From assembly GCF_002854065.1 (NCBI RefSeq), contig NZ_CP024147.1: a stretch of 64,000 nt of DNA; one strand, written 5' to 3'. The notes beneath the pieces were generated by a model. That model had not been told where the DNA came from, made no database searches, and saw nothing but the letters and a program-made list of their open reading frames with translations. Shown piece by piece: positions 22,792 through 54,516 of this stretch; the stretch's first letter is position 1, and the number at the start of each line of letters is the position of its first letter. This DNA comes from Escherichia coli. Lineage in GTDB: Bacteria; Pseudomonadota; Gammaproteobacteria; Enterobacterales; Enterobacteriaceae. The position numbers and the translations under genes are program-made.

Positions 22792-23295
22792 TTAGAGTTC
22801 GCGTAGCATCCGCACTTCACAATCGACATGGCCCGTGCAGCCAAGCGCATAGTCGATATGCTCAAAGCCCAAATGCTCATAAAGCGCAATGGCTTCCTTT
22901 AAAAAAGCGGTCGTTTCCAGATAGCAGCGTTTGAAGCCCATCTCTCGTGCTTGCTCCATCGCCATTAAGGCCAGTTTTTTCGCCAGCCCTTTACCGCGAA
23001 TAGCCGGAAGAAAATACATCTTTTGCAGTTCGCAAATGTCCGATTCACTACCTGCTAATGGCGCAATCCCACCGCCGCCGACCACTTCACCCTCGTACTC
23101 AACCACCCAATATGCATGACCAGGCTGACTATACACTTGATACAGCTCGTCAAGATTCGGATCGGCGACGGTGTAGCCTTTATCAGCGGTAAGACCGTAT
23201 TCGGCGGATACCTGACGAATGACGCGGGCGATAGCAGGATTATCCTGCAACGTCAGGCGACGCATTACAGGTGATTGCGGCGCAATGTTATTCAT
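22792..23295 (-). CDS. yjgM: GNAT-family N-acetyltransferase YjgM
   Basis: 167-aa ORF with GNAT acetyl-CoA binding motif (RGKGLAKKL). Confidence 0.8.
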
Positions 23296-28038: not shown

Positions 28039-28079
28039 AAATGGGGCTTCTTGTGGTGGATTTAAATACGCATCAGGTA

Positions 28080-28390
<311 letters not shown>

Positions 28391-34015: not shown

Positions 34016-34092
34016 GAGATATCCTCCAGTTTCCTGCCTGGAGTATAGGCAACGTCCGGCAAAGAGAATACGTGTAATGAAGAGAAAATAAC

Positions 34093-35091
34093 CTAAAGCG
34101 TGTTGCCGTGATAAATCTGATACCCGAGGTCAACAGTGTTGTGGTTGTGATCGTTATTTTTAATTTTGCTCAGCAACATTTGGGCGGCCATCCGACCAAT
34201 ATCAAAACGGGGAGTAATTACGCTGGCGAGGCTTGGGATCATTTGCCTGCCAATCTCCAGCCCATGAAAACCCGCAATGGAAATTTGTTCTGGCACGGCG
34301 AGGTTTCGCTCGCGGCACAGCAGAAGCGCACCCATCGCAATATCGTCATTGGTGCAAAATACACCGTCTAAATCCGGGTTTGCGCTAAGGGCATCACGCA
34401 TTAACTGCATTCCTAAATGAATGGATGAGATGGCGCGTGGATTCATGCGTAATGGGGAAAGATTATGCAGCATCATCGCATCGCAATACCCCTGATAACG
34501 CTGTTCATCGCGGGTGTCATCTTTGGAACCGAGATACAGAATTTTGTGCCTGACTCGCTTCTCCAGCATGGTACACACCATGTCAAAAGCGGCCTGCCGA
34601 TTATCAAAACCGACCTCCATATCCAGCCGTTCTCCCTGTACATCCATCAATTCCACGACCGGAATGGTGGCTGAACGCAGAAATTTCACCGTCCTGATGG
34701 TGTGATATTTTTCCGAAAGTATAATCCCGTCAATGTTATAAGAGAGCAGGTTAATCACCGACTCTTCTTCGGAATCGCGATCGTAATTGTAATTAGCAAT
34801 AAGGGTCTGATAATTATGCTCAGAGGTGACGGATTCTATTCCCGCGAGAATGTCAGCGAAGAGTTGATTTTGAAATGACGGAATCAAGATACCGAGGGTA
34901 TAACTTTGTGCATTCAACAACATGCCGGGAGCGCGATTAGGGATATAATTGATCTCTTCCATAATTTTGGCGATGCGCTCGCCTGTTTCCTTTGCCACCT
35001 TTTTCGGCGAGCGGATATAACGACTCACGGTCATTTTTGTTACGCCAGCCAGCGTAGCGATATCCTGTAAAGAAATTCTGTGATTGCGCAT
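34093..35091 (-). CDS. idnR: LacI-family regulator of L-idonate catabolism
   Basis: LacI-type HTH ([21 protein letters not shown]); start placed at [10 protein letters not shown]. Confidence 0.85.
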
Positions 35092-35157
35092 AACTTCTCC
35101 CAACGTCGGGGGAATCTTCAATCTTCCCCCGAAACTACATCACAATATTTTATTCTT

Positions 35158-36477
35158 TCAGTGCAATACGGCGTTAATGGCTAACACGCCCAGCAAACCC
35201 ATAATAGAAATAAGGGTTTCCATCACCGTCCAGGTACGCAACGTTTCACCAACCGTCAGATTAAAATACCCTTTAAATAGCCAGAAGCCAGGGTCGTTTA
35301 CGTGTGACGCGATCACGCTGCCCGCACCGGTTGCCAGTACCATTAAAGCGGGATCGGCATGGGTAACGTTGATAATCGGCAACACCACACCCGCGGTGGT
35401 AATGGCCGCGACGGTGGCAGAGCCCAGAGCGATACGCAACAGCGCCGCAACAGTCCAGCACATCAATAACGGCGAAAGCGTAGTTCCGGTCATTAAGTGT
35501 GAAATATAGTGCCCGACACCGCTATCTACTAATACCTGCTTAAACGCGCCGCCGCCAGCGATAATAAACACAATCATCGCGATAGCGCCTATAGAATCCC
35601 CAATGATATCCATGATTTGCTCGATGGTGCGTCCATTACGTCGGCCCAGTGTGAAAATCGCAATAACAATGGCAATAAACAGCGCAACGGCAGGGTTACC
35701 GACAAATTCAAAGAAGAGGCGCACGGTGTTAGTTTTCGGTAACGTAATTTCACAAACGGCGGCGATAGCCATCAGGATGACCGGGATCACGGCAGCGAAA
35801 ATACTGTTCCAGAAGGAGGGCATCTCCTCTTCGCTAAACAGATGAGGATTAAATAAGCCTTCCGGTGGTGCTTTCTCAAAGCGAGTTAGCAGTTTAGAAA
35901 ACAGCGGTCCTGCGACAATAACTGTCGGAATGGTAATGATAAATCCATACAGTAAAGTCGTTCCGAGATTAGCCTCAAAGATAGTCGCGATGGCAGTAGG
36001 CCCTGGATGTGGCGGCAGAAAACAGTGGGTTACAGAGAGCGCTGCTACCATTGGTACGCCAACATACAACAGGGGTAATCCTGATGATGCTACGATGGTA
36101 AATACCAACGGCAACAGCAGGACAAAACCCACTTCAAAAAACATGGCGAGGCCCACAACCAGACCAGTGATCACTAGCGCCCATTGCACGCGTTTTTTAC
36201 CAAAAGTAGCAATCAGCGTAGTGGCGATACGTTGTGCCGCACCCGTATCAGAAATCAGCTTGCCTAACATGGCCCCGAAACCGAGGATCATTGCCAGCCC
36301 ACCGAGCGTGCTGCCGATACCATTTTGTATAGAGTGCAGGACGGCCTGTGCATCCATCCCTTCGGCAAATCCGACGACGGCAGCTACCAGAACGAGGGCA
36401 ATAAAGCCGTTAACTTTAAAGCCGATCATCAGGATAAGAAGCAGCGCGACGCCTGCCGCAATAATGATTAATGGCAT
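35158..36477 (-). CDS. idnT: GntP-family L-idonate/5-ketogluconate transporter
   Basis: 439-aa polytopic GntP permease sequence. Confidence 0.88.
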   Translation of the reverse strand: MPLIIIAAGVALLLILMIGFKVNGFIALVLVAAVVGFAEGMDAQAVLHSIQNGIGSTLGGLAMILGFGAMLGKLISDTGAAQRIATTLIATFGKKRVQWALVITGLVVGLAMFFEVGFVLLLPLVFTIVASSGLPLLYVGVPMVAALSVTHCFLPPHPGPTAIATIFEANLGTTLLYGFIITIPTVIVAGPLFSKLLTRFEKAPPEGLFNPHLFSEEEMPSFWNSIFAAVIPVILMAIAAVCEITLPKTNTVRLFFEFVGNPAVALFIAIVIAIFTLGRRNGRTIEQIMDIIGDSIGAIAMIVFIIAGGGAFKQVLVDSGVGHYISHLMTGTTLSPLLMCWTVAALLRIALGSATVAAITTAGVVLPIINVTHADPALMVLATGAGSVIASHVNDPGFWLFKGYFNLTVGETLRTWTVMETLISIMGLLGVLAINAVLH

Positions 36478-36541
36478 AGTCTTTATCTCTTATTAGTGCC
36501 AGAAAAGCAGCGCTTTCGCGCTGCACGTAGGGTAGTAGGTG

Positions 36542-37306
36542 TTAAACAGCCACTAACATGCCGCCATCAACAAACAACAGGTGGCCGTTTACGAAATCAG
36601 AGGCTTTTGAAGAAAGGAACACCGCAGCACCAATCAGTTCCTGCGGATCTCCCCAGCGTGCGGCGGGGGTCCGTTTGCACAACCAGGCGGTGAAGGCTTC
36701 GTCCTCAACCAGTGCTTTAGTCATTTCTGTTTTGAAATAGCCCGGCGCAATACCGTTGACCTGAATATTGTGGCGCGCCAGCTCGACGCACATGCCGCGG
36801 GTGAGCATTTTTACCGCCCCTTTCGATGCGGCATAAGGGGTGATGGTGTCACGTCCCAGTTCGCTTTGCATCGAGCAAATATTAATAACTTTACCTGCCT
36901 TGCGTTCAACCATGTGACGAGTTACTGCTTGCGATACCAGGAACACGGCGGTCTGGTTTACTGCGATCACATCATTCCACTCTTGTTCAGGGAACTCAGT
37001 AAAAGGATGACGGCGCTGGATACCGGCGTTATTCACCAGCACATCAATGGGGCCGATGTCCTTTTCGATATGTTCAACGGCGGCATCAATTTCATGTTTA
37101 TGAGTAACATTAAAAGGTGCGGCAACGGCCTGAATACCCTCCTGGTGGAGTTTTTCTACAGCAAGTTCTGCGCGTTCGGCAGTAATATCATTAATAATTA
37201 TTTGTGCGCCATATTTACCCAGGCCGGTTGCCAGTAAAAAGCCAATGCCCTGTGCTGAACCGGTAATCAAGATATTTTTTCCTGCCAGTGAAAATAGATC
37301 GTTCAT
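36542..37306 (-). CDS. idnO: 5-keto-D-gluconate 5-reductase (SDR)
   Basis: 254-aa SDR with TGSAQGIG Rossmann motif. Confidence 0.88.
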   Translation of the reverse strand: MNDLFSLAGKNILITGSAQGIGFLLATGLGKYGAQIIINDITAERAELAVEKLHQEGIQAVAAPFNVTHKHEIDAAVEHIEKDIGPIDVLVNNAGIQRRHPFTEFPEQEWNDVIAVNQTAVFLVSQAVTRHMVERKAGKVINICSMQSELGRDTITPYAASKGAVKMLTRGMCVELARHNIQVNGIAPGYFKTEMTKALVEDEAFTAWLCKRTPAARWGDPQELIGAAVFLSSKASDFVNGHLLFVDGGMLVAV

Positions 37307-37329
37307 TGTATTATTCCTTTATTTATCTC

Positions 37330-38361
37330 TTAGAAAACAAGCTGGACTTTTGCTGCCTGGGTTTTATCACCGGCGAAACGTAGCGCCTCTTCCAGGTCAG
37401 TGAAGGGATATTCAGCACTCAGTAAAGGCAGTGGATTGATAACGCCATTCGCCAGCCATGACACTGCGGTATTAAATTCGCTGGTAAAACGGAAAGAGCC
37501 TTTGAGTGAAATCTCCTTACCAATCAATGTCATCATTGGGAATTCTGCCATCGCGCCTCCCATACCTACCTGCACCATTACGCCGCGTGCACGAGTGACC
37601 TCCAGACAGGTATTCACTGATGAAGGATGACCGGACACTTCAAAGCTGACATCGAAATAGCCTTTTTCCGCTTTCCAGTGATCCATGTCGTCGTTTTGTG
37701 GGTTTACGAGCACATCCGCCCCCATCTCTTTACCCAGCGAAAGGGAACGGGGACTCACATCGGCACAGACAATTTCCGCGGCCCCCAGTGTTTTCACAGC
37801 ACTGACAATCAGGCAGCCAATGGGCCCAACACCAGAAATAAATACTCGCTTGCCCTGTAACTCGCCGGCCTGATGTGCGGCATGAATCGCGACGGCTAAA
37901 GGTTCGGCAAAAGCCATAACCTTTTCGTCAGCTTTGGCCGGATAAGGGACACATTGCGACGTTTCGACCATTTTATAACGGGTAAAACCACCATCAACAT
38001 GAGGGAAATACATGGCACTGCCAAAAAAACGCATATCTGTACACTGATTCTCGTTATGTTCAATGCAGTATTTGCAGTGACCGCACGGTTTAGACGGATT
38101 AATGGCTACCGTTTGCCCTTCATGTAATTCTGATGAGTCGCTATGAATAACTTTACCGATAACTTCATGACCTAACACCATCGGTGCCTTTATCATGAAA
38201 TTACCTACTTTTCCTTCCTGATAATAATGTAAATCGGAACCGCAAATTCCACCTCGGGTTATTTGTACTAATGTTCCATTATTATTCCAATCTATCGTCT
38301 GCTCGGTAACGGCAACAGTTTTCTTGCCCGCAACAACGCAGGACTGTGTTTTCACTTGCAT
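37330..38361 (-). CDS. idnD: L-idonate 5-dehydrogenase (Zn-dependent MDR)
   Basis: 343-aa MDR with GHE and Zn-cysteine cluster (CGHCKYC). Confidence 0.88.
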   Translation of the reverse strand: MQVKTQSCVVAGKKTVAVTEQTIDWNNNGTLVQITRGGICGSDLHYYQEGKVGNFMIKAPMVLGHEVIGKVIHSDSSELHEGQTVAINPSKPCGHCKYCIEHNENQCTDMRFFGSAMYFPHVDGGFTRYKMVETSQCVPYPAKADEKVMAFAEPLAVAIHAAHQAGELQGKRVFISGVGPIGCLIVSAVKTLGAAEIVCADVSPRSLSLGKEMGADVLVNPQNDDMDHWKAEKGYFDVSFEVSGHPSSVNTCLEVTRARGVMVQVGMGGAMAEFPMMTLIGKEISLKGSFRFTSEFNTAVSWLANGVINPLPLLSAEYPFTDLEEALRFAGDKTQAAKVQLVF

Positions 38362-38577
38362 AAATTCCTCACTGGTCAGGTAGACACCTCGGAAGCATTT
38401 AAGCGGTTTTAATTGTTATTATTTGTGATGAAGATCACGTCAGAAAATTGTTACATTACTATGTTACGCATAACGTGATGTGCCTTGTAATTCTTATCAG
38501 CAGAAATAAAAAAACGTGAAATTATTATGCCACCAGGCGTAGTATCGCAGCAGGTAAGATGATTCAGGAGATTTTAA

Positions 38578-39141
38578 ATGGCGGGTGAAAGCTTTATTTT
38601 GATGGGCGTTTCAGGGAGTGGTAAAACATTAATTGGTAGCAAGGTTGCCGCGTTATTATCTGCTAAATTTATTGATGGTGACGATCTTCATCCAGCCAAA
38701 AATATAGATAAAATGTCGCAGGGTATTCCATTATCTGATGAAGATCGACTTCCCTGGCTGGAACGCTTAAATGATGCTTCATACAGTCTTTATAAAAAGA
38801 ATGAAACAGGATTTATTGTCTGTTCATCATTAAAAAAACAGTATCGTGATATTTTACGCAAGGGTAGCCCCCATGTTCATTTCCTCTGGTTAGATGGCGA
38901 CTATGAAACTATTCTCGCGCGAATGCAGCGTCGGGCTGGGCATTTTATGCCGGTAGCGTTACTAAAAAGTCAGTTTGAGGCACTGGAGCGTCCACAAGAA
39001 GATGAACAGGATATTGTGCGCATTGATATCAACCATGATATTGCCAATGTCACTGAACAATGTCGGCAGGCTGTGCTGGCGATACGACAAAACAGAATAT
39101 GTGCGAAAGAGGGCAGCGCCTCAGATCAGCGCTGCGAATGA
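38578..39141 (+). CDS. idnK: Gluconate kinase (thermosensitive isoform)
   Basis: 187-aa P-loop kinase (GVSGSGKT). Confidence 0.88.
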   Translation: MAGESFILMGVSGSGKTLIGSKVAALLSAKFIDGDDLHPAKNIDKMSQGIPLSDEDRLPWLERLNDASYSLYKKNETGFIVCSSLKKQYRDILRKGSPHVHFLWLDGDYETILARMQRRAGHFMPVALLKSQFEALERPQEDEQDIVRIDINHDIANVTEQCRQAVLAIRQNRICAKEGSASDQRCE

Positions 39142-39144
39142 TTT

Positions 39145-40164
39145 TCAAAAATCGGCTTTCAACACCACGCGGTAACGCGCCTTACCGTCGCGCACATGCT
39201 GGATGGCGTCGTTAATTTTCGACATCGGGAACAATTCGGTAGTCGGCGCAACCTTGCTGCGGGCGGCAAAACGCATCAGCTTACGCAACTCATAAGGCGT
39301 GCCAGTAGCAGAGCCAGAGACACTGCGATCGCCCGCAATTAACGTAAAGGCCGGAACAGACAGCGGCGTGAGAACCGCACCGACCGTATGGAAATTACCG
39401 CCATACGTCAGCGCCTCAAAATAAGGCTGCCAGTCGAGGCTGACGTTCACAGTATTGATAATGAGATCAAACTGCCCCGCCAGAGTTTTCAGTGCCTGCG
39501 GATCGCGGCTATTCACCACTTTATCGGCACCCATCGCCAGTACTTCCTGCTCTTTCGCCGGATTTGAACTAAAGGCTGTCACCTCGCATCCCATTGCGTG
39601 CAGAAGTTTTATAGCGATATGCCCCAGCCCGCCAATACCAATTACCCCAACGCGGCTGGTAGCAGTGATATGGTGCATCAATAGTGGTTTAAAGACCGTG
39701 ATACCGCCGCACAACAGCGGCCCGGCGGACTCGATATCAATATTTTCTGGCAGTGGAATCACCCATTGCCAGTCCGCACGCAACTTCTCGGCAAAGCCAC
39801 CGCGATTCATAATCGTCGGCACCGCACCTTGCTCGCAGTTGATCTGATTACCGCTAATACAGGCGTCGCAGTGACCACAGCTACGCGCCGTCCAGCCAAT
39901 CCCGACACGCTGACCGACCTGCAAACCTTTATCCTGCGCGGCGCTCCCGAGTGCCACCACGCGCCCAATCACCTCATGCCCGGCAACCAGCGGATACTGT
40001 GAAAATCCCCATTCGTTATCGATCATCGACAGATCGGAATGGCAGATCCCGCAGTAATCCACCTGCACTTCAATATCTTGTGGCTTCAGCTCACCGGGAT
40101 CGTACTCATAAACTTCCAGTTCGCCGCCCGCTTCTTTTGCGGCATAGCTTTTTATCATCGACAT
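39145..40164 (-). CDS. ahr: NADPH-dependent aldehyde reductase Ahr (YjgB), Zn-dependent MDR
   Basis: MDR motifs GHEVIG and CGHCDAC; start placed at [11 protein letters not shown]. Confidence 0.85.
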
Positions 40165-40359: not shown

Positions 40360-40444
40360 GCCGAAGTGGCGAAATCGGTAGACGCAGTTGATTCAAAATC
40401 AACCGTAGAAATACGTGCCGGTTCGAGTCCGGCCTTCGGCACCA
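40360..40444 (+). tRNA. leuX: tRNA-Leu (anticodon CAA)
   Basis: GCCGAAGTGGCGAAATCGGTAGACGCAGTTGATTCAAAATCAACCGTAGAAATACGTGCCGGTTCGAGTCCGGCCTTCGGCACCA: cloverleaf with long variable arm, anticodon loop tTCAAaa, 3' CCA. Confidence 0.95.
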
Positions 40445-42229: not shown

Positions 42230-45200
42230 ATGGATGCTTTAAGGGCTACAACATCGACAAATTTCAGTTTTCTCGCTGAACATGACCCGCTGTTTCTACA
42301 AATCGCCACTGCTGCAGAAAACGCCTTCTCAGGCGATCCCAACACCACCTTGATTAAGTTGCGCCAACTAGGTGAAGCCTTAGCACAACATATTGCTGCG
42401 CTGGTCGGGATCACGTTTGATGAACCGCCCACTCAGGCTGATTTACTCTACCGCCTCAATCGCGAGCTAAAATTTGAACCCACGGTACTCGAGCTATTTC
42501 ATCTATTGCGGATAGAGGGCAACAAGGCCACTCACCAGTTCAAAACCAAGCACAAAGAGGCGCTAGATGGCTTAAAAGTGGCGCGAGCGCTAGCTATCTG
42601 GTTCCACCAATCTTTCGGCAAGCAGGGCGCGGCCTTTAAACCCGGCGCTTTTATTGCTCCTCCAGACCCGAGCAATCAGCTTAGGCAACTCCAAACGGAA
42701 ATCGATCGCCTCAAAAGTGAGCTCACTACCGCCAACATACAGCTAGATTCCAGCCAACAGCTGCAAAATTTGCTGGTGCAGGAAAAGAGTGAATATGAAG
42801 CGCTGGCGTTAGCCATGGATGATGAAACTAAGGTGTTAGCATCGCAGGCGAAAGAGCAGGAAATTGCACTCGAACAGCTTCGACAGCAATACGAAGAAAA
42901 ATTAAAAATCCTGCAAGCGCAACTGACCGAAAAAGATGAAAAGCAGGCCCGAACACAACGGCGAGAGTTTGCCCAGAAGAGCCGCCGTGCCAGCCAACAT
43001 ATCGCGTTAAATGAAGAACTCACCCGTATATTGATTGACCAAAACTTAAATGATGCGGGCTGGCTTGCTGACAGTCAGGAACTGACCTGGGCTAACGGAA
43101 CTCGCCCTGAAAAGGGGATAAACAAAGCCATTGCCGAATGGCCTACGGAGTATCAGGGTAAAAAAGGTCGCGCTGATTACGTTCTATTTTGCGGCTTAAC
43201 TCCGCTGGCCACGGTCGAAGCCAAAAAAGAAAACACCGATGTTGCGGGAAAAATTCCGCAGGCAGAACGCTACAGCAAAGGCTTCAAAATCACGTCCCCC
43301 ATGATTGGCGCATGGGAGCGGGAAGGCCGAACCATTGCATGGGCGGATGAGACTGACGGGCATTATATTATCCCGTTTGTATACTCCTGCAACGGTCGCC
43401 CCTACGTGCCACAGTTGGCTGAGTCATCAGGAACTTGGTTCCGGGACGTGCGCGAACCGTCCAACATCCGCCGTGCGCTGCAAAAGTTTCATACCCCGCA
43501 AGGCTTGCTGGATAAACTCGAACGCAGCAAAGACAGCGCCGAACAGAAGCTAAAGCAAGAAGGCTTCGCTTACCTCCGGTTACGCGATTATCAGCAAAAG
43601 GCCATTCTCGCCGTTGAAAGCACATTGGCGCAAAACATCCGCAATGCCCTTCTGGCGATGGCGACCGGCACCGGGAAAACACGCACCATTGTTGGTCTAA
43701 TGTACCGTTTTCTGAAAACTGAACGCTTCAAGCGCATCCTCTTTCTGGTTGACCGTACGGCTTTGGGCGAGCAAGCCACGGACACCTTCAAAGAAGCGCC
43801 GTTGGAGCAAAACCAGACGCTGTCTCAGATTTACAATATCGCTGAGCTCGGCGATATGGCTACACAGGCAGAAACCCGAGTACAGGTCGCGACGGTACAG
43901 GCCATGGTTAGCCGCATTTTTTCCTCGGACACACCACCGCCGGTGGATGAATTTGACTGCATCATCGTTGATGAAGCCCACCGAGGCTACACCTTAGATC
44001 AGGAAATGACTGAAGGGGAACTCTCGACCCGCGACGCCAGCCAATATCTCTCCAGCTACCGTCGGGTGCTCGATTATTTCGACGCGGTAAAAATCGGCCT
44101 TACCGCCACTCCGGCGAAACATACCAGCGATATCTTCGGCAAACCGATTTACATCTACTCCTACCGTGAAGCCGTGGCGGATGATTGGCTTATCGATCAT
44201 GAACCTCCAATCCGTTATGAAACGCTGCTGACGCAAAATGGCATCCACTTTGACAAAGGGAGCCAGGTGCATGCCATTAATATCCACACCGGAGAGGTTG
44301 AGATTGATCAGCTAGAAGACGAAGTGGATTTCAACGTTGATGCATTTAACCGTGGCGTCATCAGTGAAAACTTTAATCGGGTTATTTGCCAACAGCTCGT
44401 GAAAGAGCTCGATCCCTTTGGCGAAGAGAAAACGCTGGTTTTCTGCGTTACAGACAAACATGCCGACATGGTCAAACGCTTGCTGGATGAAGCGTTCTCT
44501 GCTGAATATGAAAACTATAATCAAGCGGCCGTCGAGAAAATCACCGGTGAAAGTGACAAAGTCAAACAGTTGATCAAACAGTATAAAAATGAACGCTATC
44601 CGAATATTGCAATCACCGTTGATTTGCTTAGCACCGGCATTGACGTGCCGAAGATTTGTAATCTGGTTTTCATGCGTCGGGTGAAGTCACGTATTTTATT
44701 TGAACAGATGATAGGCCGCGCAACACGCCGCTGTGATGACATTGGCAAAACGGTCTTCCGTATTTACGATCCAGTAGATATTTATGAGGCTCTCAGTGAC
44801 GTTAACACCATGAAACCGCTGGTCAAAGACCCCAATATCACACTTGAACAATTGGTCGGCGAGCTAACCGATACTGAACAGCTCGAAAAAGCGCTCAACA
44901 GCCCCGGTGAACATACAGGTGAAACTCAGGCTGATGTGGTGCTCAGCCAGTTAAGCCAAAAGGTGATGCGCATCCTACGTAAGGCGGAGAAACGGGCAGA
45001 AAATCGCCCAGTGGTGAAACAAAAATTGGCTGACCTCCATCAACTGTGGGGCGTTGAGCCAAAACAGCTGCATCAACATCTGCATCACTTAGGGCCGCGT
45101 CAGGCGGCAGCCTTCATCCAACAACAGCAAGGGCTAATCTGCCAGCTCAACGAGATAGCTACATTACTCGGAAGTGAATACCGGCCGATTATTTCTGAGC

Positions 45201-45754
45201 ATCATGACCAACTACAGGAACGTAACCAGAGCTACGGTAGCCATCAGCGGCCAGAAGATTACCTGGAAAGCTTTGCGGATTTTATTCAGCAGCAGCTTAA
45301 CCAATCCACTGCGCTGGCCGTGGTTGTCAACAAACCCCGCGACCTCACTCGTGAACAGCTTAAAGAGATCCGCTTATTATTAGACGGTGCGGGCTATTCC
45401 GAAGCTAATCTACAAACCGCCGTGCGTAATCAAACCAATCAGGATATCGCCGCCAGCATTGTCGGCCACATTCGCCGTGCTGCACTAGGGGAGCCTCTTG
45501 TGCCTTTTGCACAGCGCGTATCACAGGCAATGATCAACATTTATAACAGCCGCGCATGGACAACCCAGCAACGAAAATGGCTGGATCGTCTGGCAAAACA
45601 GCTGGTTCATGAAGTGATCATTGATCACCAATTTATTAACAATAGTTTTGCTGATGATGGCGGCGTAAAACAGCTCAATAAGATATTGGTAGACCAACTG
45701 GACAGCGTGCTGGATGAACTTAACGGTGCGATATGGCCACAACAAAGCGCCTGA
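42230..45754 (+). CDS. hsdR: Type I restriction enzyme R subunit (nuclease/helicase)
   Basis: 1174-aa ORF; PD-(D/E)xK-type motif (RADYVLF...VEAKK), SF2 helicase motif I (AMATGTGKT) and motif II (IIVDEAHRG); N-terminal coiled-coil segment. Confidence 0.9.
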   Translation: MDALRATTSTNFSFLAEHDPLFLQIATAAENAFSGDPNTTLIKLRQLGEALAQHIAALVGITFDEPPTQADLLYRLNRELKFEPTVLELFHLLRIEGNKATHQFKTKHKEALDGLKVARALAIWFHQSFGKQGAAFKPGAFIAPPDPSNQLRQLQTEIDRLKSELTTANIQLDSSQQLQNLLVQEKSEYEALALAMDDETKVLASQAKEQEIALEQLRQQYEEKLKILQAQLTEKDEKQARTQRREFAQKSRRASQHIALNEELTRILIDQNLNDAGWLADSQELTWANGTRPEKGINKAIAEWPTEYQGKKGRADYVLFCGLTPLATVEAKKENTDVAGKIPQAERYSKGFKITSPMIGAWEREGRTIAWADETDGHYIIPFVYSCNGRPYVPQLAESSGTWFRDVREPSNIRRALQKFHTPQGLLDKLERSKDSAEQKLKQEGFAYLRLRDYQQKAILAVESTLAQNIRNALLAMATGTGKTRTIVGLMYRFLKTERFKRILFLVDRTALGEQATDTFKEAPLEQNQTLSQIYNIAELGDMATQAETRVQVATVQAMVSRIFSSDTPPPVDEFDCIIVDEAHRGYTLDQEMTEGELSTRDASQYLSSYRRVLDYFDAVKIGLTATPAKHTSDIFGKPIYIYSYREAVADDWLIDHEPPIRYETLLTQNGIHFDKGSQVHAINIHTGEVEIDQLEDEVDFNVDAFNRGVISENFNRVICQQLVKELDPFGEEKTLVFCVTDKHADMVKRLLDEAFSAEYENYNQAAVEKITGESDKVKQLIKQYKNERYPNIAITVDLLSTGIDVPKICNLVFMRRVKSRILFEQMIGRATRRCDDIGKTVFRIYDPVDIYEALSDVNTMKPLVKDPNITLEQLVGELTDTEQLEKALNSPGEHTGETQADVVLSQLSQKVMRILRKAEKRAENRPVVKQKLADLHQLWGVEPKQLHQHLHHLGPRQAAAFIQQQQGLICQLNEIATLLGSEYRPIISEHHDQLQERNQSYGSHQRPEDYLESFADFIQQQLNQSTALAVVVNKPRDLTREQLKEIRLLLDGAGYSEANLQTAVRNQTNQDIAASIVGHIRRAALGEPLVPFAQRVSQAMINIYNSRAWTTQQRKWLDRLAKQLVHEVIIDHQFINNSFADDGGVKQLNKILVDQLDSVLDELNGAIWPQQSA

Positions 45755-45833
45755 TTCTGGTAAAATTCGCTAGCGAAACACGCCTTTTTAATCGCGCTTG
45801 CGGCATATTTCGCGAGCGAATGCAGGAAAAATA

Positions 45834-47402
45834 ATGAGTAATAATAACGATATCGTACAAAAACTGTGGAACCTGTGTGATGTACTGCGTGATGACGGCA
45901 TCAACTACAGCGATTACGTCACCGAACTAGTGCTACTACTGTTTATCAAAATGGTGCATGAAAATACCGAAGCAGAATTATTAGATCAGCACACTTTACC
46001 GCAGGGCTGCCGCTGGAGCGATCTCAACAGTTTATCGGGCCTCAACTTGCTTAACCATTACAAACAAATGCTGTTGAAGCTCTCCAGCGGCAAAGACGCT
46101 GAAGGTAATTCGGTTCATGCTGACCCGCTGATTAGCGCCATTTATGACGATGCGCAGACCCGCCTGCGTGAGCCTCGTCATCTCGAACAGATGATCCGCA
46201 CCCTCGACCAAATTGACTGGTTTAGTGCTAAAAAAGACGGTCTCGGTGATCTTTATGAAGGTCTGCTGGAGAAAAACGCCGGAGAAACAAAATCTGGCGC
46301 AGGTCAATATTTTACGCCGCGGGCCTTAATTAACAGCATGGTACGCTGCATTAAGCCACAGGCTGGAGAAGTGATCCAAGATCCCGCTGCGGGCACCGCA
46401 GGGTTTTTGATTGCCGCCGATCAATACATCAAGCAACAAACTGACAACCTCTACGACCTTACTGCCAAAGCGAGAACCTTTCAAAAAAATAAAGCCTTTA
46501 TTGGTGTGGAACTGGTTCCGTCTACGCGCCGCCTGGCACTGATGAACTGCCTGCTACACGGCATCGAAGGGGATGACGAAGGCGTCGTGCATCAGGGCAA
46601 CGCGTTGGGCATGGTGGGTGCTAGCTTGCCCAAGGCCGATATCATTCTTGCTAACCCGCCGTTCGGTACGGCGAAAGGCGGTGAAGCCAGCATTACTCGT
46701 GATGACTTAACCTACCCAACTAGTAACAAACAGCTAGCGTTTTTACAGCATATCTACCGTAACTTAAAACCGGGTGGCCGTGCAGCTGTGGTGCTACCCG
46801 ACAACGTCCTGTTTGAAGCGGGTGTTGGCACCGATGTACGCCGCGACCTTATGAACAAATGTAACCTGCACACCATTTTACGTTTACCCACCGGGATTTT
46901 TTACGCCCAAGGGGTGAAAACCAACGTTTTGTTCTTCACCAAAGGCAGCGCCAACAACAAACATCAGGATGAAAATTGTACCGAAAACGTCTGGATCTAT
47001 GATCTGCGTAGTAACATGCCAAGCTTTGGCAAACGCACCCCGTTTGGTGAGCAACATTTAAAACCCTTTGAAGCGGTTTACGGCGACGATGCCAACGGTC
47101 AAAGCCCACGCAGTGAAGGGGAATGGAGTTTTAACTCCGACAAACTTGACGTGCCCGATAACGCCGAAAATCAGCACGTTGACAACCGCATGGCGACCAG
47201 CCGTTGGCGCACATTCAGCCGTGAATGGATCCGCGATGTTAAAGGTGATTCATTAGATATTGCATGGCTGAAAGATAACAACAGCGTTGATGTGACTAAC
47301 CTGCCTGAACCTAGTGTATTAGCGATTGAAGCAAAAGAAGAATTAACCACTGCTTTAGCAGAACTGGATGCTTTATTGACTTTATTAGGAGCAACTCGCT
47401 GA
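45834..47402 (+). CDS. hsdM: Type I restriction-modification N6-adenine DNA methyltransferase subunit
   Basis: N-terminal HsdM_N-like sequence (DIVQKLWNLCDVLRDDG), motif I DPAAGTAGFL, catalytic NPPF; start at the ATG with AGGA RBS. Confidence 0.9.
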   Translation: MSNNNDIVQKLWNLCDVLRDDGINYSDYVTELVLLLFIKMVHENTEAELLDQHTLPQGCRWSDLNSLSGLNLLNHYKQMLLKLSSGKDAEGNSVHADPLISAIYDDAQTRLREPRHLEQMIRTLDQIDWFSAKKDGLGDLYEGLLEKNAGETKSGAGQYFTPRALINSMVRCIKPQAGEVIQDPAAGTAGFLIAADQYIKQQTDNLYDLTAKARTFQKNKAFIGVELVPSTRRLALMNCLLHGIEGDDEGVVHQGNALGMVGASLPKADIILANPPFGTAKGGEASITRDDLTYPTSNKQLAFLQHIYRNLKPGGRAAVVLPDNVLFEAGVGTDVRRDLMNKCNLHTILRLPTGIFYAQGVKTNVLFFTKGSANNKHQDENCTENVWIYDLRSNMPSFGKRTPFGEQHLKPFEAVYGDDANGQSPRSEGEWSFNSDKLDVPDNAENQHVDNRMATSRWRTFSREWIRDVKGDSLDIAWLKDNNSVDVTNLPEPSVLAIEAKEELTTALAELDALLTLLGATR

Positions 47403-48778
47403 TGAGTAAGATTATTCTACCTGAAGGGTGGTCCAATTGTACTCTTGCAGATATTGCTGAAGTTAACCCTAAAAAAATAGAGGCTGAACCTGACATAATT
47501 GCAGGCTTTGTTCCTATGTCTCATGCCCCAACAAACTATTACGGGAAATTAGAGTTTGAAGAAAAGACTTGGGGTGAAATTGGTAAATCTTACACTAACT
47601 TTAAAAATGATGATGTGATTTTTGCAAAAGTAACGCCTTGTTTTGAAAATGGTAAAGCAGCAATTGTAAAAGATATGCCAAATAATATCGGTGCAGGCAG
47701 CTCTGAATTTTATGTTCTACGCGCTCGTAATCAAGAGATACCAGCCAGTTATTTACTTGGGATTATTAAGACCAGAAAATTTATGCAGGAAGGTGCAGAA
47801 AATATGACAGGTGCTGTTGGTCTGCGCCGTGTTCCAAGGGCTTTCGTTGAAAGCTTTCCTTTGATACTTCCCCCTCTTGCAGAACATAAAATCATCGCCG
47901 ATAAACTCGATATTCTGTTAGCACAGGTCGAAAGCGCCAAAGCACGCCTTGAGCAAATACCACAAATCCTGAAGCGTTTTCGTCAAGCGGTGTTGGCATC
48001 TGCGGTGAGTGGAAAATTAATACCAAAGGATCAAAAGTCCAATGTACGATTTGATGTCTCAGTTGGTTCACTTTGTATAACTTCGTTTGATGGCCCTTTT
48101 GGGTCAAAATTAAAAACGGCTGATTATACAAATGCGGGTGTTCGTGTCGCTCGACTAGAAAATATTGGTCATTTAACATTTAATGATGAAAAAGAAACGT
48201 ATATCAGCGATACAAAATTTAATAGCCTAAAAGGAAATAAGCTCGAAAAGGATGATGTGTTATTCTCATCATTTGTAGATGAAGATGTTCGTGTATGTCT
48301 TTTTCCACATAACGATAAAATTTTTATAAACAAGGCAGATTGTTTTTGTTTAAGGATCAATCAAGAAATAGCATCACCAAAATATGTAGCTTTAACATTA
48401 GCAAGCAGAACTTCGTATGAACAAATTAAAGCACAGGTTCAAGGTGTAACACGACCTCGTATTAATTTAAAGACGTTAAGGTCTTTGTCGTTTACGTTTC
48501 CTTCTCTACAAGAACAAAACGAAATTGTTCGCCGCGTAGAACAACTCTTCGCCTATGCTGATGGCATCGAAAAGCAGGTACACAACGCCCTTGAGTGCGT
48601 CAACAACCTCACACAGTCGATTCTGGCTAAAGCATTTCGTGGGGAACTCACGGCGCAATGGCGTGCAGAAAATCCCGATTTAATTAGTGGTGAAAATAGC
48701 GCACAAGCATTACTGGTGAAAATTCAACAGCAGCGCAAAAACATAAAAAATATCAAACGCAACAAGGGTAATAATTGA
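47402..48778 (+). CDS. hsdS: Type I restriction-modification specificity subunit
   Basis: 458-aa ORF, start overlaps the hsdM stop (TGATG); two target-recognition-domain halves separated by conserved helical spacers. Confidence 0.85.
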   Translation: MSKIILPEGWSNCTLADIAEVNPKKIEAEPDIIAGFVPMSHAPTNYYGKLEFEEKTWGEIGKSYTNFKNDDVIFAKVTPCFENGKAAIVKDMPNNIGAGSSEFYVLRARNQEIPASYLLGIIKTRKFMQEGAENMTGAVGLRRVPRAFVESFPLILPPLAEHKIIADKLDILLAQVESAKARLEQIPQILKRFRQAVLASAVSGKLIPKDQKSNVRFDVSVGSLCITSFDGPFGSKLKTADYTNAGVRVARLENIGHLTFNDEKETYISDTKFNSLKGNKLEKDDVLFSSFVDEDVRVCLFPHNDKIFINKADCFCLRINQEIASPKYVALTLASRTSYEQIKAQVQGVTRPRINLKTLRSLSFTFPSLQEQNEIVRRVEQLFAYADGIEKQVHNALECVNNLTQSILAKAFRGELTAQWRAENPDLISGENSAQALLVKIQQQRKNIKNIKRNKGNN

Positions 48779-50481
48779 TGCGACTGATTTCTTTAGATTT
48801 GAGAGGCAGCTACAAAGGCTTGAAAGATCAATTCTTTGACTTCAGTTATGCCCAAGATAATATAATTGCATTGATTGGCCTTAATGGTTCTGGTAAATCT
48901 CAATTGCTTGAGTTAATCGGAGAAACTTTTGCTTATCTAGAGCGATGGCAACGTGCAGAGTTCAAAAATAAAACATCGTTAGGTTTTAGCGTCGCGGTAC
49001 ACTATCAATGGGATCTTAGAAATGATAGTGCTGTTATATCTTACCCAGACGAGCTCATGAATCATGGTGAGAGCATTGAGCTAAAGGTAACTATTGAGCT
49101 TGACGGCGATGTGTTTTTAAATGTTCGTGGTACTTATGAGTGGCATGTAATACAGCTTGGTGAGCGCCATTTCCCCATCCCTCTCGTGGTTGGTTATGCT
49201 TCGGGGCTAAACGAAAATTTACAGCGAAGTTTTATGAAAAATGCTGTGCAATATTTTGAAGTCCGTCGAATTAGTAGCCAGCGTCTAAAAATGCTATCAC
49301 GAGAAATTAATGATGAACAGTTGGCTGAAATCAATAAGAAGTATCTTAAAAAATACCCACACATATTTGATCCTTTATCAGAAGGTGATTTTTTTCCAAA
49401 TTATCACCTGAATTTGAGAGAAGTGAATCCTGCCCCTAGCAATTTTAACTATCTTGATTACGATAATATTGGGCTCTTAATTTTATCGCTATCGATTCTT
49501 CCGGCTGGGACAGTATTTCAACTATTAGATGAAATAACATATAAACATCCTGTCAAAGCTGTACTTCATTACGACTTTCGTTCTGGCATCATAGAAGATG
49601 ATGCCATTCGTGATGTGAAAATGTTGATCCGTATAGCAGGCTCCGATCAAGTAAGGCCAACAGGAGGCCGAACTACAGATAACCAGTATGAACTTTATGA
49701 GTTAGAATATCTGTCTGGAGAAATCACTCTCGAATTAAGTGATGAGGCTGTTTTAAACCGACTTCGTGAAGATAACTACTTTGATTCTTTCGCATTATTT
49801 AAAAGACTTAATAATATTCAACAGCTTGGCATAAAGAACTGGGATCGTACATCTCGTTTGAAATTGATGAAAGATGATTTTATAGGTACGGTAAAAAAAC
49901 CGCTTCAGTCAAGGTTACCTTTATCTGTTGTTGAGTTATTAATGGCTAATGAACAGGGCGATACCGTGAAGTTTGATGATTTATCTGACGGTGAAGCTCA
50001 ATTGATTCAGGTTGTTGCCGCAACAAGGATATTCAGTCAGGTTCAAGCGCTATTTCTTTTTGATGAGCCAGAAACACACCTTAATCCGTCTTGGCGTACC
50101 TATTTTCATCAGCGTTTAACTGAAGCATTTACACCTGGAAATGAGAGGAAAGGTCAATCGCAATTCTTTCTATCTACTCACTCACCATTCATGATTTCCT
50201 CGCTCAAACGCGAGAATGTATTTTTCTTCGAGCGTAGTGATATGGGTTGTATCAGTATGGAACCGGTGTCCAGCCAGACTTATGGCACATCATTTGATGT
50301 CTTGGTTAAGAACCACTACGGTCTGCGTTCCCTTATTTCACAGACAGTGGTGAAGGATGTTAAAAATCGATTACCAGAAGATAATAATCCTGAAGCAGTT
50401 ATAGCTGCGCGACTCTGGATTGAGGAAAATCTGGGAGAATCAATGGAAAAGGCTTATCTGCTAAGGAAACTAGATAGCTAA
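48778..50481 (+). CDS. ABC/SMC-like P-loop ATPase (AAA_15/AAA_21-like), candidate defence ATPase (Septu PtuA-like)
   Basis: Walker A GLNGSGKS near the N-terminus; signature-like LSDGEAQL, Walker B LFLFDEPETHLNP and H-loop STHSP near the C-terminus; start overlaps the hsdS stop. Confidence 0.7.
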   Translation: MRLISLDLRGSYKGLKDQFFDFSYAQDNIIALIGLNGSGKSQLLELIGETFAYLERWQRAEFKNKTSLGFSVAVHYQWDLRNDSAVISYPDELMNHGESIELKVTIELDGDVFLNVRGTYEWHVIQLGERHFPIPLVVGYASGLNENLQRSFMKNAVQYFEVRRISSQRLKMLSREINDEQLAEINKKYLKKYPHIFDPLSEGDFFPNYHLNLREVNPAPSNFNYLDYDNIGLLILSLSILPAGTVFQLLDEITYKHPVKAVLHYDFRSGIIEDDAIRDVKMLIRIAGSDQVRPTGGRTTDNQYELYELEYLSGEITLELSDEAVLNRLREDNYFDSFALFKRLNNIQQLGIKNWDRTSRLKLMKDDFIGTVKKPLQSRLPLSVVELLMANEQGDTVKFDDLSDGEAQLIQVVAATRIFSQVQALFLFDEPETHLNPSWRTYFHQRLTEAFTPGNERKGQSQFFLSTHSPFMISSLKRENVFFFERSDMGCISMEPVSSQTYGTSFDVLVKNHYGLRSLISQTVVKDVKNRLPEDNNPEAVIAARLWIEENLGESMEKAYLLRKLDS

Positions 50482-51647
50482 TGTTATTTTCACTTAATCC
50501 ACAGACGCCTCAATGTTCGGTATTTGCATTTCTTAATGCTGAATTTCTTCATTTTTTGCAAGCTACTATTAATGCTGATGTATTCTCAGAAAACTTATTC
50601 CGCACTTTTCCTGAGATGATTGAAGATACAGAAGTACTTGTCCCTAGTGTATGTTGGAGTAATGAGCCCACAAGAGAGAAATTTCTTGGGTTATGGGAAG
50701 CGCGGCCTACGACCGTTGCGCAGCGACGGGAGTTGTCAGACCAAATAAGTCAGGCTCAGGATATTAATGTATTTTTCAACAATACCCAAGCTGTATTGCC
50801 GCAATTAGTACCAGCCTCTTTATTCGAAGCATGTAAGGCGTTAACAACTCATTTGTTTACACGTACCAAAGATCTAGCTCAAGCAAAGTCACAATCCAAT
50901 AGTTCTATTGAAAAACATTATCAGAATTTCGTCAGAGAAAATAATAATAGCCATCTATGTCCTATTTGTGGCACTGCACTTCTCTCTCAAAATCGAGAAA
51001 GCGTAGCAGAGGAAGAACAATGGCGATCAGATTATGACCACATTCTTTGCAAAGATAAATATCCAGTTTACAGTGTCCATCCAGGAAACTTCATTCCGAC
51101 TTGCCATATTTGTAATAGTAAAGCTAAAGGGGCAAGGGACTTACTGAATACTGTTGGTCTCCAGAGACGATTAGCATTTTATCCACTTCCCCCATCACAA
51201 GAGTCATGTGAGCAATTTGTTGTGGTATCGCTTCACCTCAGTGACCGTAGAGATTTAATTGTGAATAGTTGGGAAACACCGTTGGAGTCAGCATCCATTT
51301 TATTCCCCAGAGCTCCAGCTGACATAGTAGATAAAATAGGTGTATGGAAAGAAGTTTATAAAGTACCAGAAAGAGTTGAACAGCATCTTAAGGTCAACTT
51401 TTGCGAGCGTATAGCCGCTGATCTACGACCAGTAAGCTTTGATGATTTCTGTGAGCAATTACATAGATATTCGAGACAAATGCCAGCAGACTATAGAAAA
51501 TCGGAATGGAGGTTTTGGTGGCAGAAAGTCTATGAATTCTTATCAGATCAAAATAGAGACTATTTACACGATGTGTGGATATTAATTGCCTGGAAATTAA
51601 GGTTATCAAATGATGCTGATATGGCTGATACGTTTAATCAAATTTAA
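50481..51647 (+). CDS. HNH-endonuclease-domain protein, partner of the upstream ATPase (Septu PtuB-like)
   Basis: Central motif CPICG...DYDHILCKDKYP...NFIPTCHICNSKAKG (CxxC...DH...N...CxxCN); start overlaps the ATPase stop (TAATG). Confidence 0.65.
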   Translation: MLFSLNPQTPQCSVFAFLNAEFLHFLQATINADVFSENLFRTFPEMIEDTEVLVPSVCWSNEPTREKFLGLWEARPTTVAQRRELSDQISQAQDINVFFNNTQAVLPQLVPASLFEACKALTTHLFTRTKDLAQAKSQSNSSIEKHYQNFVRENNNSHLCPICGTALLSQNRESVAEEEQWRSDYDHILCKDKYPVYSVHPGNFIPTCHICNSKAKGARDLLNTVGLQRRLAFYPLPPSQESCEQFVVVSLHLSDRRDLIVNSWETPLESASILFPRAPADIVDKIGVWKEVYKVPERVEQHLKVNFCERIAADLRPVSFDDFCEQLHRYSRQMPADYRKSEWRFWWQKVYEFLSDQNRDYLHDVWILIAWKLRLSNDADMADTFNQI

Positions 51648-51661
51648 ATTTTACTTCAACA

Positions 51662-51691
51662 GGGTGAGAGTATTGTTACTCTCCCTTTTTA
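51662..51691. terminator. Hairpin plus T-run between convergent HNH gene and nuclease-motif gene
   Basis: GGGTGAGAGTAttgtTACTCTCCC followed by TTTTT; overlaps the last codons of the minus-strand gene. Confidence 0.5.
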
Positions 51692-52848
51692 AAATACATT
51701 GTAGAAGGTGCGCTTATTACTACGCAACCATCAATGCCTTTTATCTTCAATACCCCTTCCTTGAATTTAACATGTTCTTGTGTTGCTCGAGTGCAGTCCC
51801 ACAGGAAGCTGATGATATACGAATCCTTATATTTTTCGTCGACACGATAAAGTGACGCATCTTCTGCAATTTCTCCTATTAGTGCAGGAAACGATTTTTT
51901 TGTATCTTTTCGGTATTTTACTTCAATAATTGTGTGCAGTGATGGCAGATAAAGGTCTATGCGGGGGTTTTTTTGTCCGACAGGCTGAAGATTCACCTCA
52001 TCTGCAATATCGTTGAATATTGGCGCAAGTAGGATATAAAGCAGATTCTGAACATGATATTCATTTTCAACTTGCCACTTTACGGGCTCTGCGCCTCTGG
52101 TTCGACCTGAGTCCTCCCATGTCCATCGTTTTAACCCTGCAGGGATATGTTCCAGAAATCCTAGCAGGTCATCCAGTGTCCATCCAGACGGTGGAGCAAT
52201 GGCAATTTCCTGATTAATTTGATTAAAAACGTAAAGCATTACACACAAGAGAGTAACTGAAGGATTTTCTGTAGCTTGTGCTTGAAATTCGCTCATGAAA
52301 CGTCCGACAAGAGAAAGTCGGTTCTGATGACTATTGATCTTCAATAACTTTCGATAATGAAGGAAGAGTGGTATGCAGGCACTACTAAAGGAGGCTGATT
52401 CGCTGTTACCGACATATGCCGCGATATCTTTCTCGAAGATACTTAGATGGTTGCTTTCAATTTGCTGAGCCAGAAACCCTGAAATCCACTTTTCGAACTC
52501 GTGATTTATGCTCTCATCTTGCATCTGTGCCGTTAGCCATTTCACTGCCATTACACCGAACATATCCGATACCCAAGGTCTCGGTGTTGAATCAATCTTG
52601 GGAGCTTGTCCGAGCAGGCGAGAGACATCCTGGACCGAGACAGTTTCATCTAGAATACCTAAACCTGAAATTGCACAGCGTTGGTATAAAGATAGGTCCG
52701 CAAAGCTAAAATTCGTAATGCAGCTTTTATCTCCTTCCAGGAGACTAAAAAAGCAGGACTTAAATGGATCAATGTGAGCGGATTCGATCACCTTACTGTG
52801 AAAATAGTCGCGTAGCTGATAAACGTTTTCTTTCTCTATAGGAACCAT
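51676..52848 (-). CDS. Predicted PD-(D/E)xK-motif nuclease, candidate effector partner of the upstream Argonaute
   Basis: 390-aa ORF; C-terminal motif ...RIDLYLPSLHTIIEVKY (D-x(n)-E-x-K) preceded by a helix with conserved Glu; start overlaps the pAgo stop by 13 nt. Confidence 0.55.
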   Translation of the reverse strand: MVPIEKENVYQLRDYFHSKVIESAHIDPFKSCFFSLLEGDKSCITNFSFADLSLYQRCAISGLGILDETVSVQDVSRLLGQAPKIDSTPRPWVSDMFGVMAVKWLTAQMQDESINHEFEKWISGFLAQQIESNHLSIFEKDIAAYVGNSESASFSSACIPLFLHYRKLLKINSHQNRLSLVGRFMSEFQAQATENPSVTLLCVMLYVFNQINQEIAIAPPSGWTLDDLLGFLEHIPAGLKRWTWEDSGRTRGAEPVKWQVENEYHVQNLLYILLAPIFNDIADEVNLQPVGQKNPRIDLYLPSLHTIIEVKYRKDTKKSFPALIGEIAEDASLYRVDEKYKDSYIISFLWDCTRATQEHVKFKEGVLKIKGIDGCVVISAPSTMYFKKGE

Positions 52849-53175
52849 TGTGAATGCCCTATTTTTCCAATCATGACTGAGTCACTCCAGCCCGGAAGCT
52901 GATTCAACCATCCTAAATTATGGGCGATAAGATCGGAATAAGTGATGGTAACTGGCATGGGATTGGGGAAGTAACTACGCCAGGAGTGTGATGCGAAACT
53001 GTAGAGCTGAGCACTCAAATACTTAATATCTTTGAAGGTCGAGTCTTTATGAACGTTGACGATCACACCACGTGGATGACCGTCCGTTTCTTGTCGTAAT
53101 TCACGTTGGCCGATCAGGTAAACAAGCATTTCGTTTTTAGAAAGCTTAAACGTATTTCCGCGATGTGTCGCCAGG

Positions 53176-53180
53176 CGTCC
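53176..53180. repeat. IS2 target-site duplication, left copy (CGTCC)
   Basis: Identical 5 bp directly flanking both IS2 ends. Confidence 0.85.
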
Positions 53181-53271
53181 TAGACTGGCCCCCTGAATCT
53201 CCAGACAACCAATATCACTTAAATAAGTGATAGTCTTAATACTAGTTTTTAGACTAGTCATTGGAGAACAG

Positions 53272-53637
53272 ATGATTGATGTCTTAGGGCCGGAGAAACG
53301 CAGACGGCGTACCACACAGGAAAAGATCGCAATTGTTCAGCAGAGCTTTGAACCGGGGATGACGGTCTCCCTCGTTGCCCGGCAACATGGTGTAGCAGCC
53401 AGCCAGTTATTTCTCTGGCGTAAGCAATACCAGGAAGGAAGTCTTACTGCTGTCGCCGCCGGAGAACAGGTTGTTCCTGCCTCTGAACTTGCTGCCGCCA
53501 TGAAGCAGATTAAAGAACTCCAGCGCCTGCTCGGCAAGAAAACGATGGAAAATGAACTCCTCAAAGAAGCCGTTGAATATGGACGGGCAAAAAAGTGGAT
53601 AGCGCACGCGCCCTTATTGCCCGGGGATGGGGAGTAA
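53272..53637 (+). CDS. insC: IS2 OrfA (InsC, HTH protein)
   Basis: 121-aa sequence [26 protein letters not shown]... recognised as IS2 InsC. Confidence 0.9.
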
Positions 53638-54500
53638 GCTTAGTCAGCCGTTGTCTCCGGGTGTCGCGTGCGCAGTTGCACGTCATTCTCAGACGAACCG
53701 ATGACTGGATGGATGGCCGCCGCAGTCGTCACACTGATGATACGGATGTGCTTCTCCGTATACACCATGTTATCGGAGAGCTGCCCACGTATGGTTATCG
53801 TCGGGTATGGGCGCTGCTTCGCAGACAGGCAGAACTTGATGGTATGCCTGCGATCAATGCCAAACGTGTTTACCGGATCATGCGCCAGAATGCGCTGTTG
53901 CTTGAGCGAAAACCTGCTGTACCGCCATCGAAACGGGCACATACAGGCAGAGTGGCCGTGAAAGAAAGCAATCAGCGATGGTGCTCTGACGGGTTCGAGT
54001 TCTGCTGTGATAACGGAGAGAGACTGCGTGTCACGTTCGCGCTGGACTGCTGTGATCGTGAGGCACTGCACTGGGCGGTCACTACCGGCGGCTTCAACAG
54101 TGAAACAGTACAGGACGTCATGCTGGGAGCGGTGGAACGCCGCTTCGGCAACGATCTTCCGTCGTCTCCAGTGGAGTGGCTGACGGATAATGGTTCATGC
54201 TACCGGGCTAATGAAACACGCCAGTTCGCCCGGATGTTGGGACTTGAACCGAAGAACACGGCGGTGCGGAGTCCGGAGAGTAACGGAATAGCAGAGAGCT
54301 TCGTGAAAACGATAAAGCGTGACTACATCAGTATCATGCCCAAACCAGACGGGTTAACGGCAGCAAAGAACCTTGCAGAGGCGTTCGAGCATTATAACGA
54401 ATGGCATCCGCATAGTGCGCTGGGTTATCGCTCGCCACGGGAATATCTGCGGCAGCGGGCTTGTAATGGGTTAAGTGATAACAGATGTCTGGAAATATAG
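53595..54500 (+). CDS. insD: IS2 OrfB (InsD, DDE transposase; expressed as an OrfAB fusion by -1 frameshift)
   Basis: 301-aa ORF overlapping insC in the -1 frame; DDE integrase-core-like sequence. Confidence 0.9.
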
Positions 54501-54511
54501 GGGCAAATCCA

Positions 54512-54516
54512 CGTCC
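54512..54516. repeat. IS2 target-site duplication, right copy (CGTCC)
   Basis: Identical 5 bp directly flanking both IS2 ends. Confidence 0.85.

Follow-up and report, generated by a model that had tools for sequence, protein, structure and literature searches.

A complete IS2 element interrupts the Argonaute gene of an EcBPAN-type locus in the leuX defence island of Escherichia coli

The inserted IS2 element and its target site

The window analysed here is a 64,000-nucleotide stretch of Escherichia coli DNA, and it carries a complete copy of IS2, a member of the IS3 family. The element is 1331 bp long and occupies positions 53181–54511 on the + strand, as read directly and checked by script; its first letters are TAGACTGGCCCCCTGAATCTCC and its last letters are GGAAATATAGGGGCAAATCCA. 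Alignment of the two ends defines a 42-bp left inverted repeat (IRL, 53181–53222, +) and a 41-bp right inverted repeat (IRR, 54471–54511, +), which are imperfect and pair with one 1-base gap. The IRL is the published site of P-IRL, the weak native IS2 promoter. Two intact reading frames lie between the ends. The first, orfA (InsC, the IS2 TnpA repressor; 121 aa; 53272–53637, +), scores 276.4 bits against NCBIfam NF006928, for which the curated cut-off is 229, and its place within the element matches that of K-12 insC1. The second, orfB (InsD, IS2 TnpB; 301 aa; 53595–54500, +), scores 727.6 bits against NF006918, with a curated cut-off of 597. The programmed −1 frameshift window A AAA AAG, which gives the OrfAB transposase, is found at 53589–53595 (+), and both its motif and its phase are correct. 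The 42/41-bp imperfect ends and the A6G frameshift window agree with those described for IS2 (PMC3299598).

We compared this copy with IS2A of E. coli K-12 MG1655 (NC_000913.3, 381260–382590). The calculated identity is 1330 of 1331 nucleotides, and the sole mismatch, at element position 606, is a synonymous CCC/CCA change in the proline codon 64 of orfB. The two elements are alike in their length of 1331 bp, in their 42/41-bp ends, which are identical, in the orfA/orfB arrangement with the A6G window and in the 5-bp duplication that flanks them. They differ in location: IS2A sits in yaiX between ATTAC and ATTAC, whereas the copy in the window sits in a prokaryotic Argonaute (pAgo) gene between CGTCC and CGTCC. 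Copies that are 100% identical to the window element occur on many E. coli chromosomes and plasmids. Near-full-length IS2 is present in 4058 of 5426 complete E. coli genomes, at a median of four places per genome, and a search of the 64-kb window found no second IS2 sequence. An earlier note on this DNA had described the element as full length, 1331 bp, with both terminal repeats and both reading frames intact; the coordinates, the end alignment and the NCBIfam scores all agree with that description, and the comparison with reference copies that it proposed places the element one synonymous base from IS2A, with exact copies elsewhere and with ends that show no degeneration. Judged by its sequence determinants, all of which are intact, the element is apparently transposition-competent.

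The IS2 copy is flanked by two copies of the pentamer CGTCC, at 53176–53180 on the left and at 54512–54516 on the right, again by direct reading and by script. The pentamer corresponds to nucleotides 1888–1892 of the pAgo reading frame, within codons Gly630–Arg631. The empty site has it only once, and a 5-bp match would arise at random with a chance of about 1/1024. On re-inspection the two flanks are identical, and the sequence left after excision equals a naturally occurring empty site, so that the simple transposition proposed in the earlier note holds. The opposite orientation of the element and the gene is also borne out, since the transposase is encoded on the + strand and pAgo on the − strand. 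IS2 would have entered by the usual IS3-family route, in which the element is copied out via a minicircle and then pasted in with a 5-bp staggered cut.

The interrupted pAgo gene, its effector partner and the leuX island

The insertion divides pAgo into two fragments on the − strand. The 5′ fragment (54512–56403) encodes residues 1–630 and two bases of codon 631, and the 3′ fragment (52836–53180) encodes residues 630–743 and the stop codon, thereby comprising the C-terminus together with the last third of the Piwi domain. The reading frame of the 5′ fragment runs into IS2 and stops at 54334–54336. Its 689-aa product is a pAgo–IS2 chimera that includes 58 IS-encoded residues and lacks the last 112 residues of pAgo. 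A further open reading frame of 159 aa (52836–53315, −) begins inside IS2 and enters the 3′ fragment. When IS2 and one copy of CGTCC are deleted in silico, a 743-aa reading frame is restored on the − strand (52836–56403 without the insert). The restored protein matches the PADLOC model pAgo_II (class II, long-B) with 971 bits over residues 16–743 (E about 1e-292), and its Pfam Piwi domain spans residues 444–718. Against the EcAgo chain of PDB 23wq it is identical at 728 of 731 positions, and the next match is RsAgo. EcAgo has been described as catalytically inactive (PMC10620215), and from this near-identity the restored protein would likewise carry an inactive PIWI domain without a DEDX tetrad.

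Two further observations concern the surroundings of the gene. A consensus scan for an outward promoter directed toward the downstream gene gave one junction match only, a 9/12 sigma-70-like sequence TCGAAA-17-TATATT (54494–54522, −) that crosses the IRR junction; it reads from 54522 to 54494 into IS2, antisense to the transposase, and was rejected as a candidate, being at chance level for the region. Just upstream of pAgo lies a VOC-family gene (about 56988–57380), for which the annotation of the reference island (E. coli VTB96935v, locus 22772–23164) gives a pseudogene, interrupted by an internal stop; the window has the same sequence.

Immediately downstream of pAgo, and overlapping its stop by 13 nt, is an intact bAgaN gene (51676–52848, −) encoding a PD-(D/E)XK effector nuclease (PADLOC Aga_Helical-REase, E = 3.7e-132). 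Its product matches the EcbAgaN chain of PDB 23wq over the full length, residues 1–390 (E = 1.9e-260), and the exact sequence occurs on 179 public contigs. Because the restored pAgo is nearly EcAgo and the downstream gene is EcbAgaN, the disrupted locus is, by sequence, an allele of EcBPAN, an abortive-infection system already published (Song et al., Nat Commun 2023, PMC10620215; PDB 23wq), with which it shares the overlapping operon architecture. In that system, EcAgo binds 5′-phosphorylated small RNAs and recognizes complementary single-stranded DNA, and target-bound EcAgo activates the DNase EcbAgaN, which leads to degradation of genomic DNA (PMC10620215). A plasmid with a CloDF13 origin provokes cell death and plasmid depletion, and there is no protection against phage infection by T5, T7 or lambda-vir; neither EcAgo nor EcbAgaN alone reduces viability, and EcbAgaN is inactive in vivo without EcAgo (PMC10620215). 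The published EcBPAN is functional, whereas in the window only one of the two genes is intact: IS2 divides pAgo at codons 630–631, which would make the locus a natural knock-out. The PADLOC and PDB 23wq matches thus bear out the suggestion in the earlier note that the insertion hits the sensor of a defence or abortive-infection system with a downstream effector.

The locus is part of the leuX island. Positions 39145–64000 of the window are collinear with the leuX region of VTB96935v, a chicken isolate from South Africa (NZ_CP178662.1). Starting at the tRNA gene, no more than eight substitutions separate the two sequences, and structurally they differ in IS2 alone. The island starts at the tRNA-Leu gene leuX (about 40360–40444), which is followed by a tyrosine integrase, the type I restriction–modification genes hsdR, hsdM and hsdS, a PtuA-like ATPase, a PtuB-like partner and the convergent bAgaN–pAgo pair. 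The PtuA-like AAA ATPase (48775–50481) matches TIGR04435, 'restriction system-associated AAA ATPase', below its cut-off, and its partner is a 388-aa PtuB/PDC-M62B-like protein (50481–51647). The type I operon continues, with overlapping start and stop codons, into the PtuA-like ATPase and the 388-aa gene (42230–51647), and this block was conserved without damage in each of the islands examined. The hsdRMS-linked PtuA/PtuB-like pair may be a Septu-like module linked to restriction–modification.

The core flank of the window (1–40600) is 100% identical to that of phylogroup-A-like strains, for example E. coli CUWW06 (NZ_CP182139.1). The leuX island of CUWW06 is entirely different and carries several very large DEAD/DEAH helicases and a type II Zorya system. 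On these comparisons, leuX is a variable, swap-prone defence hotspot, and the BPAN island has moved between backgrounds whose core genes are about 2–5% divergent. Smaller differences were also seen in the core region. CUWW06 has an IS1 in bdcA that is lacking in the window. The idnRTODK (L-idonate) operon, at 34054–39145 between yjgR and ahr, is absent from VTB96935v (locus 6174–6265), and the adjoining yjgR is only 94.8% identical between the window and VTB96935v. In the holC–pepA intergenic region (28079–28386), staggered BLAST self-matches mark about three tandem diverged copies (89–95% identity) of a unit of about 100 bp, which are probably REP/BIME-type repeats.

Empty, occupied and damaged copies of the locus

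We compared the occupied site with its empty counterparts. The reconstructed empty site, 600 bp in length, is 100% identical in VTB96935v, and the target is uninterrupted in all other fetched loci that span it, more than 25 in number; the empty site that the earlier note proposed to look for in related strains is thus found. The exact restored 743-aa protein occurs on 355 public contigs in a collection of 15 billion proteins, and the 689-aa chimera occurs on exactly one. A 200-bp query across the flank–IS2 junction, at a coverage of at least 80%, gave no hit among the 5426 complete E. coli genomes, a set that does not include the source genome; sibling isolates with the same junction could exist outside this set. 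The BPAN operon itself was found in one of the 5426 genomes (VTB96935v), with a distant-mode search included, and a plasmid search gave no BPAN copies on plasmids. Since only one genome was found even in the distant-mode search and plasmid copies were lacking, the system is rare and chromosomal.

The window is also identical over 8463 bp to a locus of GCA_900449205.1 (L007), and this stretch takes in the target together with the complete 5′ part of pAgo and the region upstream of the gene. No second lesion was seen in the pAgo region. Because there is no other lesion and the occupied form is on one contig only, the insertion is, as far as these sequences can date it, recent, simple and strain-specific. 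The absence of secondary changes serves as a loose clock and limits its age only roughly from above. The earlier note had also called the insertion recent, and this agrees with the lack of secondary lesions, with the restored protein on 355 contigs against the truncated form on one, and with the junction count of 0 of 5426.

Other BPAN copies in leuX islands carry lesions of different kinds. In GCA_900449205.1 (L007, L015 and L027), a 1.26-kb IS3-type element lies in bAgaN at operon nucleotide 2463. CP024667.1 (L016 and L036) and others carry a derivative of this IS3-split allele, in which an IS66 has been added and pAgo has been deleted. An IS21-associated deletion in GCA_040813265.1 (L030) leaves the last 376 nt of bAgaN, and an IS1-associated deletion in GCA_045623545.1 (L034) leaves 57 nt. 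Smaller changes in bAgaN are a nonsense codon in L011 (G2944A) and a 1-nt deletion in L012 (nt 2839), and L017 and L018 are also among the leuX-island copies with lesions. Two apparent forms of decay were rejected. The 291-aa bAgaN calls (92 contigs, Klebsiella) are start-codon calls on intact DNA in every locus checked, unlike the 295-aa form, which is the real IS3 split. The 731-aa pAgo calls similarly reflect alternative start codons of intact reading frames (L022, L023, L025 and L031, checked for both forms).

Regarding intact copies, BPAN is undamaged in all 25 contigs anchored on the VTB96935v allele of a neighbouring gene and in all but 4 of the 23 contigs of a second neighbour-anchored sample, and none of the 24 contigs anchored on an intact bAgaN has a damaged pAgo. 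In a set of 26 contigs in which pAgo is intact, damage to bAgaN occurs three times and damage to the three neighbouring genes never. Fisher's test on this damage gives p of about 0.014 against the pooled neighbours and 0.24 against a single neighbour, and the comparison is underpowered. The samples behind these lesion counts overlap, are small and lack phylogenetic control.

Predicted consequences and the cause of the loss

The Argonaute C-terminus helps to form the pocket that binds the 5′-phosphate of the guide. Since the PIWI fold has lost its final third and the C-terminus is missing, we infer loss of function of the 689-aa product, which would be unable to act as an RNA-guided DNA sensor. 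The effector gene would be affected as well. The new pAgo stop lies 1485 nt from the bAgaN ATG, antisense to the transposase, and transcripts from the pAgo promoter would have to pass through some 1.5 kb of IS2, antisense and untranslated, to reach bAgaN. Rho-dependent polarity is textbook behaviour of IS2 insertions, and with such an untranslated stretch ahead of it, bAgaN is probably under-expressed through polarity. A consensus scan of the − strand from the IS2 left end to bAgaN gave no sigma-70-like promoter match. The 159-aa reading frame could in principle allow some coupled translation of bAgaN, which counts against full polarity. The net effect would be a clean loss of plasmid-triggered abortive infection, with bAgaN non-toxic and not activated without EcAgo.

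By default, we read the insertion as a neutral or mildly beneficial loss of BPAN. An adaptive inactivation, as the earlier note suggested, in which EcBPAN killed or cured cells that gained a useful ColE1/CloDF13-type plasmid or imposed an autoimmune cost, seems unlikely, although it is mechanistically plausible and several observations point in its direction. EcBPAN kills cells and depletes a plasmid with a CloDF13 origin and does not protect the cells from T5, T7 or lambda-vir (PMC10620215), and independent BPAN lesions in other E. coli islands involve IS3, IS21, IS1, a nonsense codon and a frameshift. Insertions of IS1, IS2, IS5 and IS10 into cas genes are the usual escape in E. coli under conflict between CRISPR–Cas and a selected plasmid (Nat Commun 2023, PMC10359306). 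There too, a resident E. coli IS element, IS2 included, disrupts a defence gene, which relieves the defence–plasmid conflict, and the event is of the same kind; however, the target in that study is CRISPR–Cas and selection was shown experimentally, whereas the target in the window is an Argonaute and selection is conjectured. The threefold damage to bAgaN against none in its neighbours also leans this way, but the contrast is weak and is not relied on here. One event in one genome cannot show selection, and drift alone is expected to give IS hits in accessory genes. Moreover, most islands are intact, as the anchored samples show for pAgo (24/24) and BPAN (25/25), and the sampling has the limits of size, overlap and phylogenetic control given above. 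A broader form of the idea is slightly less probable still: EcBPAN would be inactivated recurrently under selection, by IS insertions and IS-mediated deletions, in lineages that need ColE1/CloDF13-type plasmids, with the effector or the sensor lost preferentially over the neighbouring genes.

The occupied allele is on one contig only and IS2 is multicopy in E. coli, which could suggest a mis-assembly of the repeat or a transposition in laboratory culture before sequencing. We consider such an artefact very improbable. Both junctions are present, with an exact 5-bp duplication of a target that the empty site has once; this is the signature of a real transposition and not of a collapse or mis-join. 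An origin in laboratory culture would still be a genuine insertion. Even less credible is a regulatory role, in which IS2 acts as a switch, either through an outward promoter that drives bAgaN or through precise excision that restores pAgo. Outward or hybrid promoter parts are common at the ends of IS3-family elements (PMC12095673), and the perfect duplication would in principle permit precise excision. However, bAgaN is situated on the far side of the IRL end and is encoded on the other strand from the transposase, and no promoter-like match faces it; the right end of IS2 is without detectable promoter activity (PMC12095673) and points away from bAgaN. The nuclease is in any case inactive in vivo without EcAgo (PMC10620215). 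As for restoration of pAgo, IS elements seldom excise precisely.

Neutral or mildly beneficial loss thus remains our default reading of the cause. We hold the account as a whole with high confidence: a complete IS2 lies in codons 630–631 of the pAgo gene of EcBPAN, in a leuX defence island, and the insertion is recent, simple and strain-specific and has probably cost the strain the system. It reveals no new biology, being a textbook IS2 insertion in a system that is already known and structurally solved. The practical use lies mainly in annotation: both genes remain recognizable, yet the source strain is to be counted as BPAN-negative. The locus is a natural, isogenic-style knock-out of a characterized Argonaute defence, and it could serve to ask if EcBPAN, in its native chromosome, restricts CloDF13/ColE1-type plasmids. 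It is also one more example of the known way in which IS elements wear down defence genes in islands with fast turnover.
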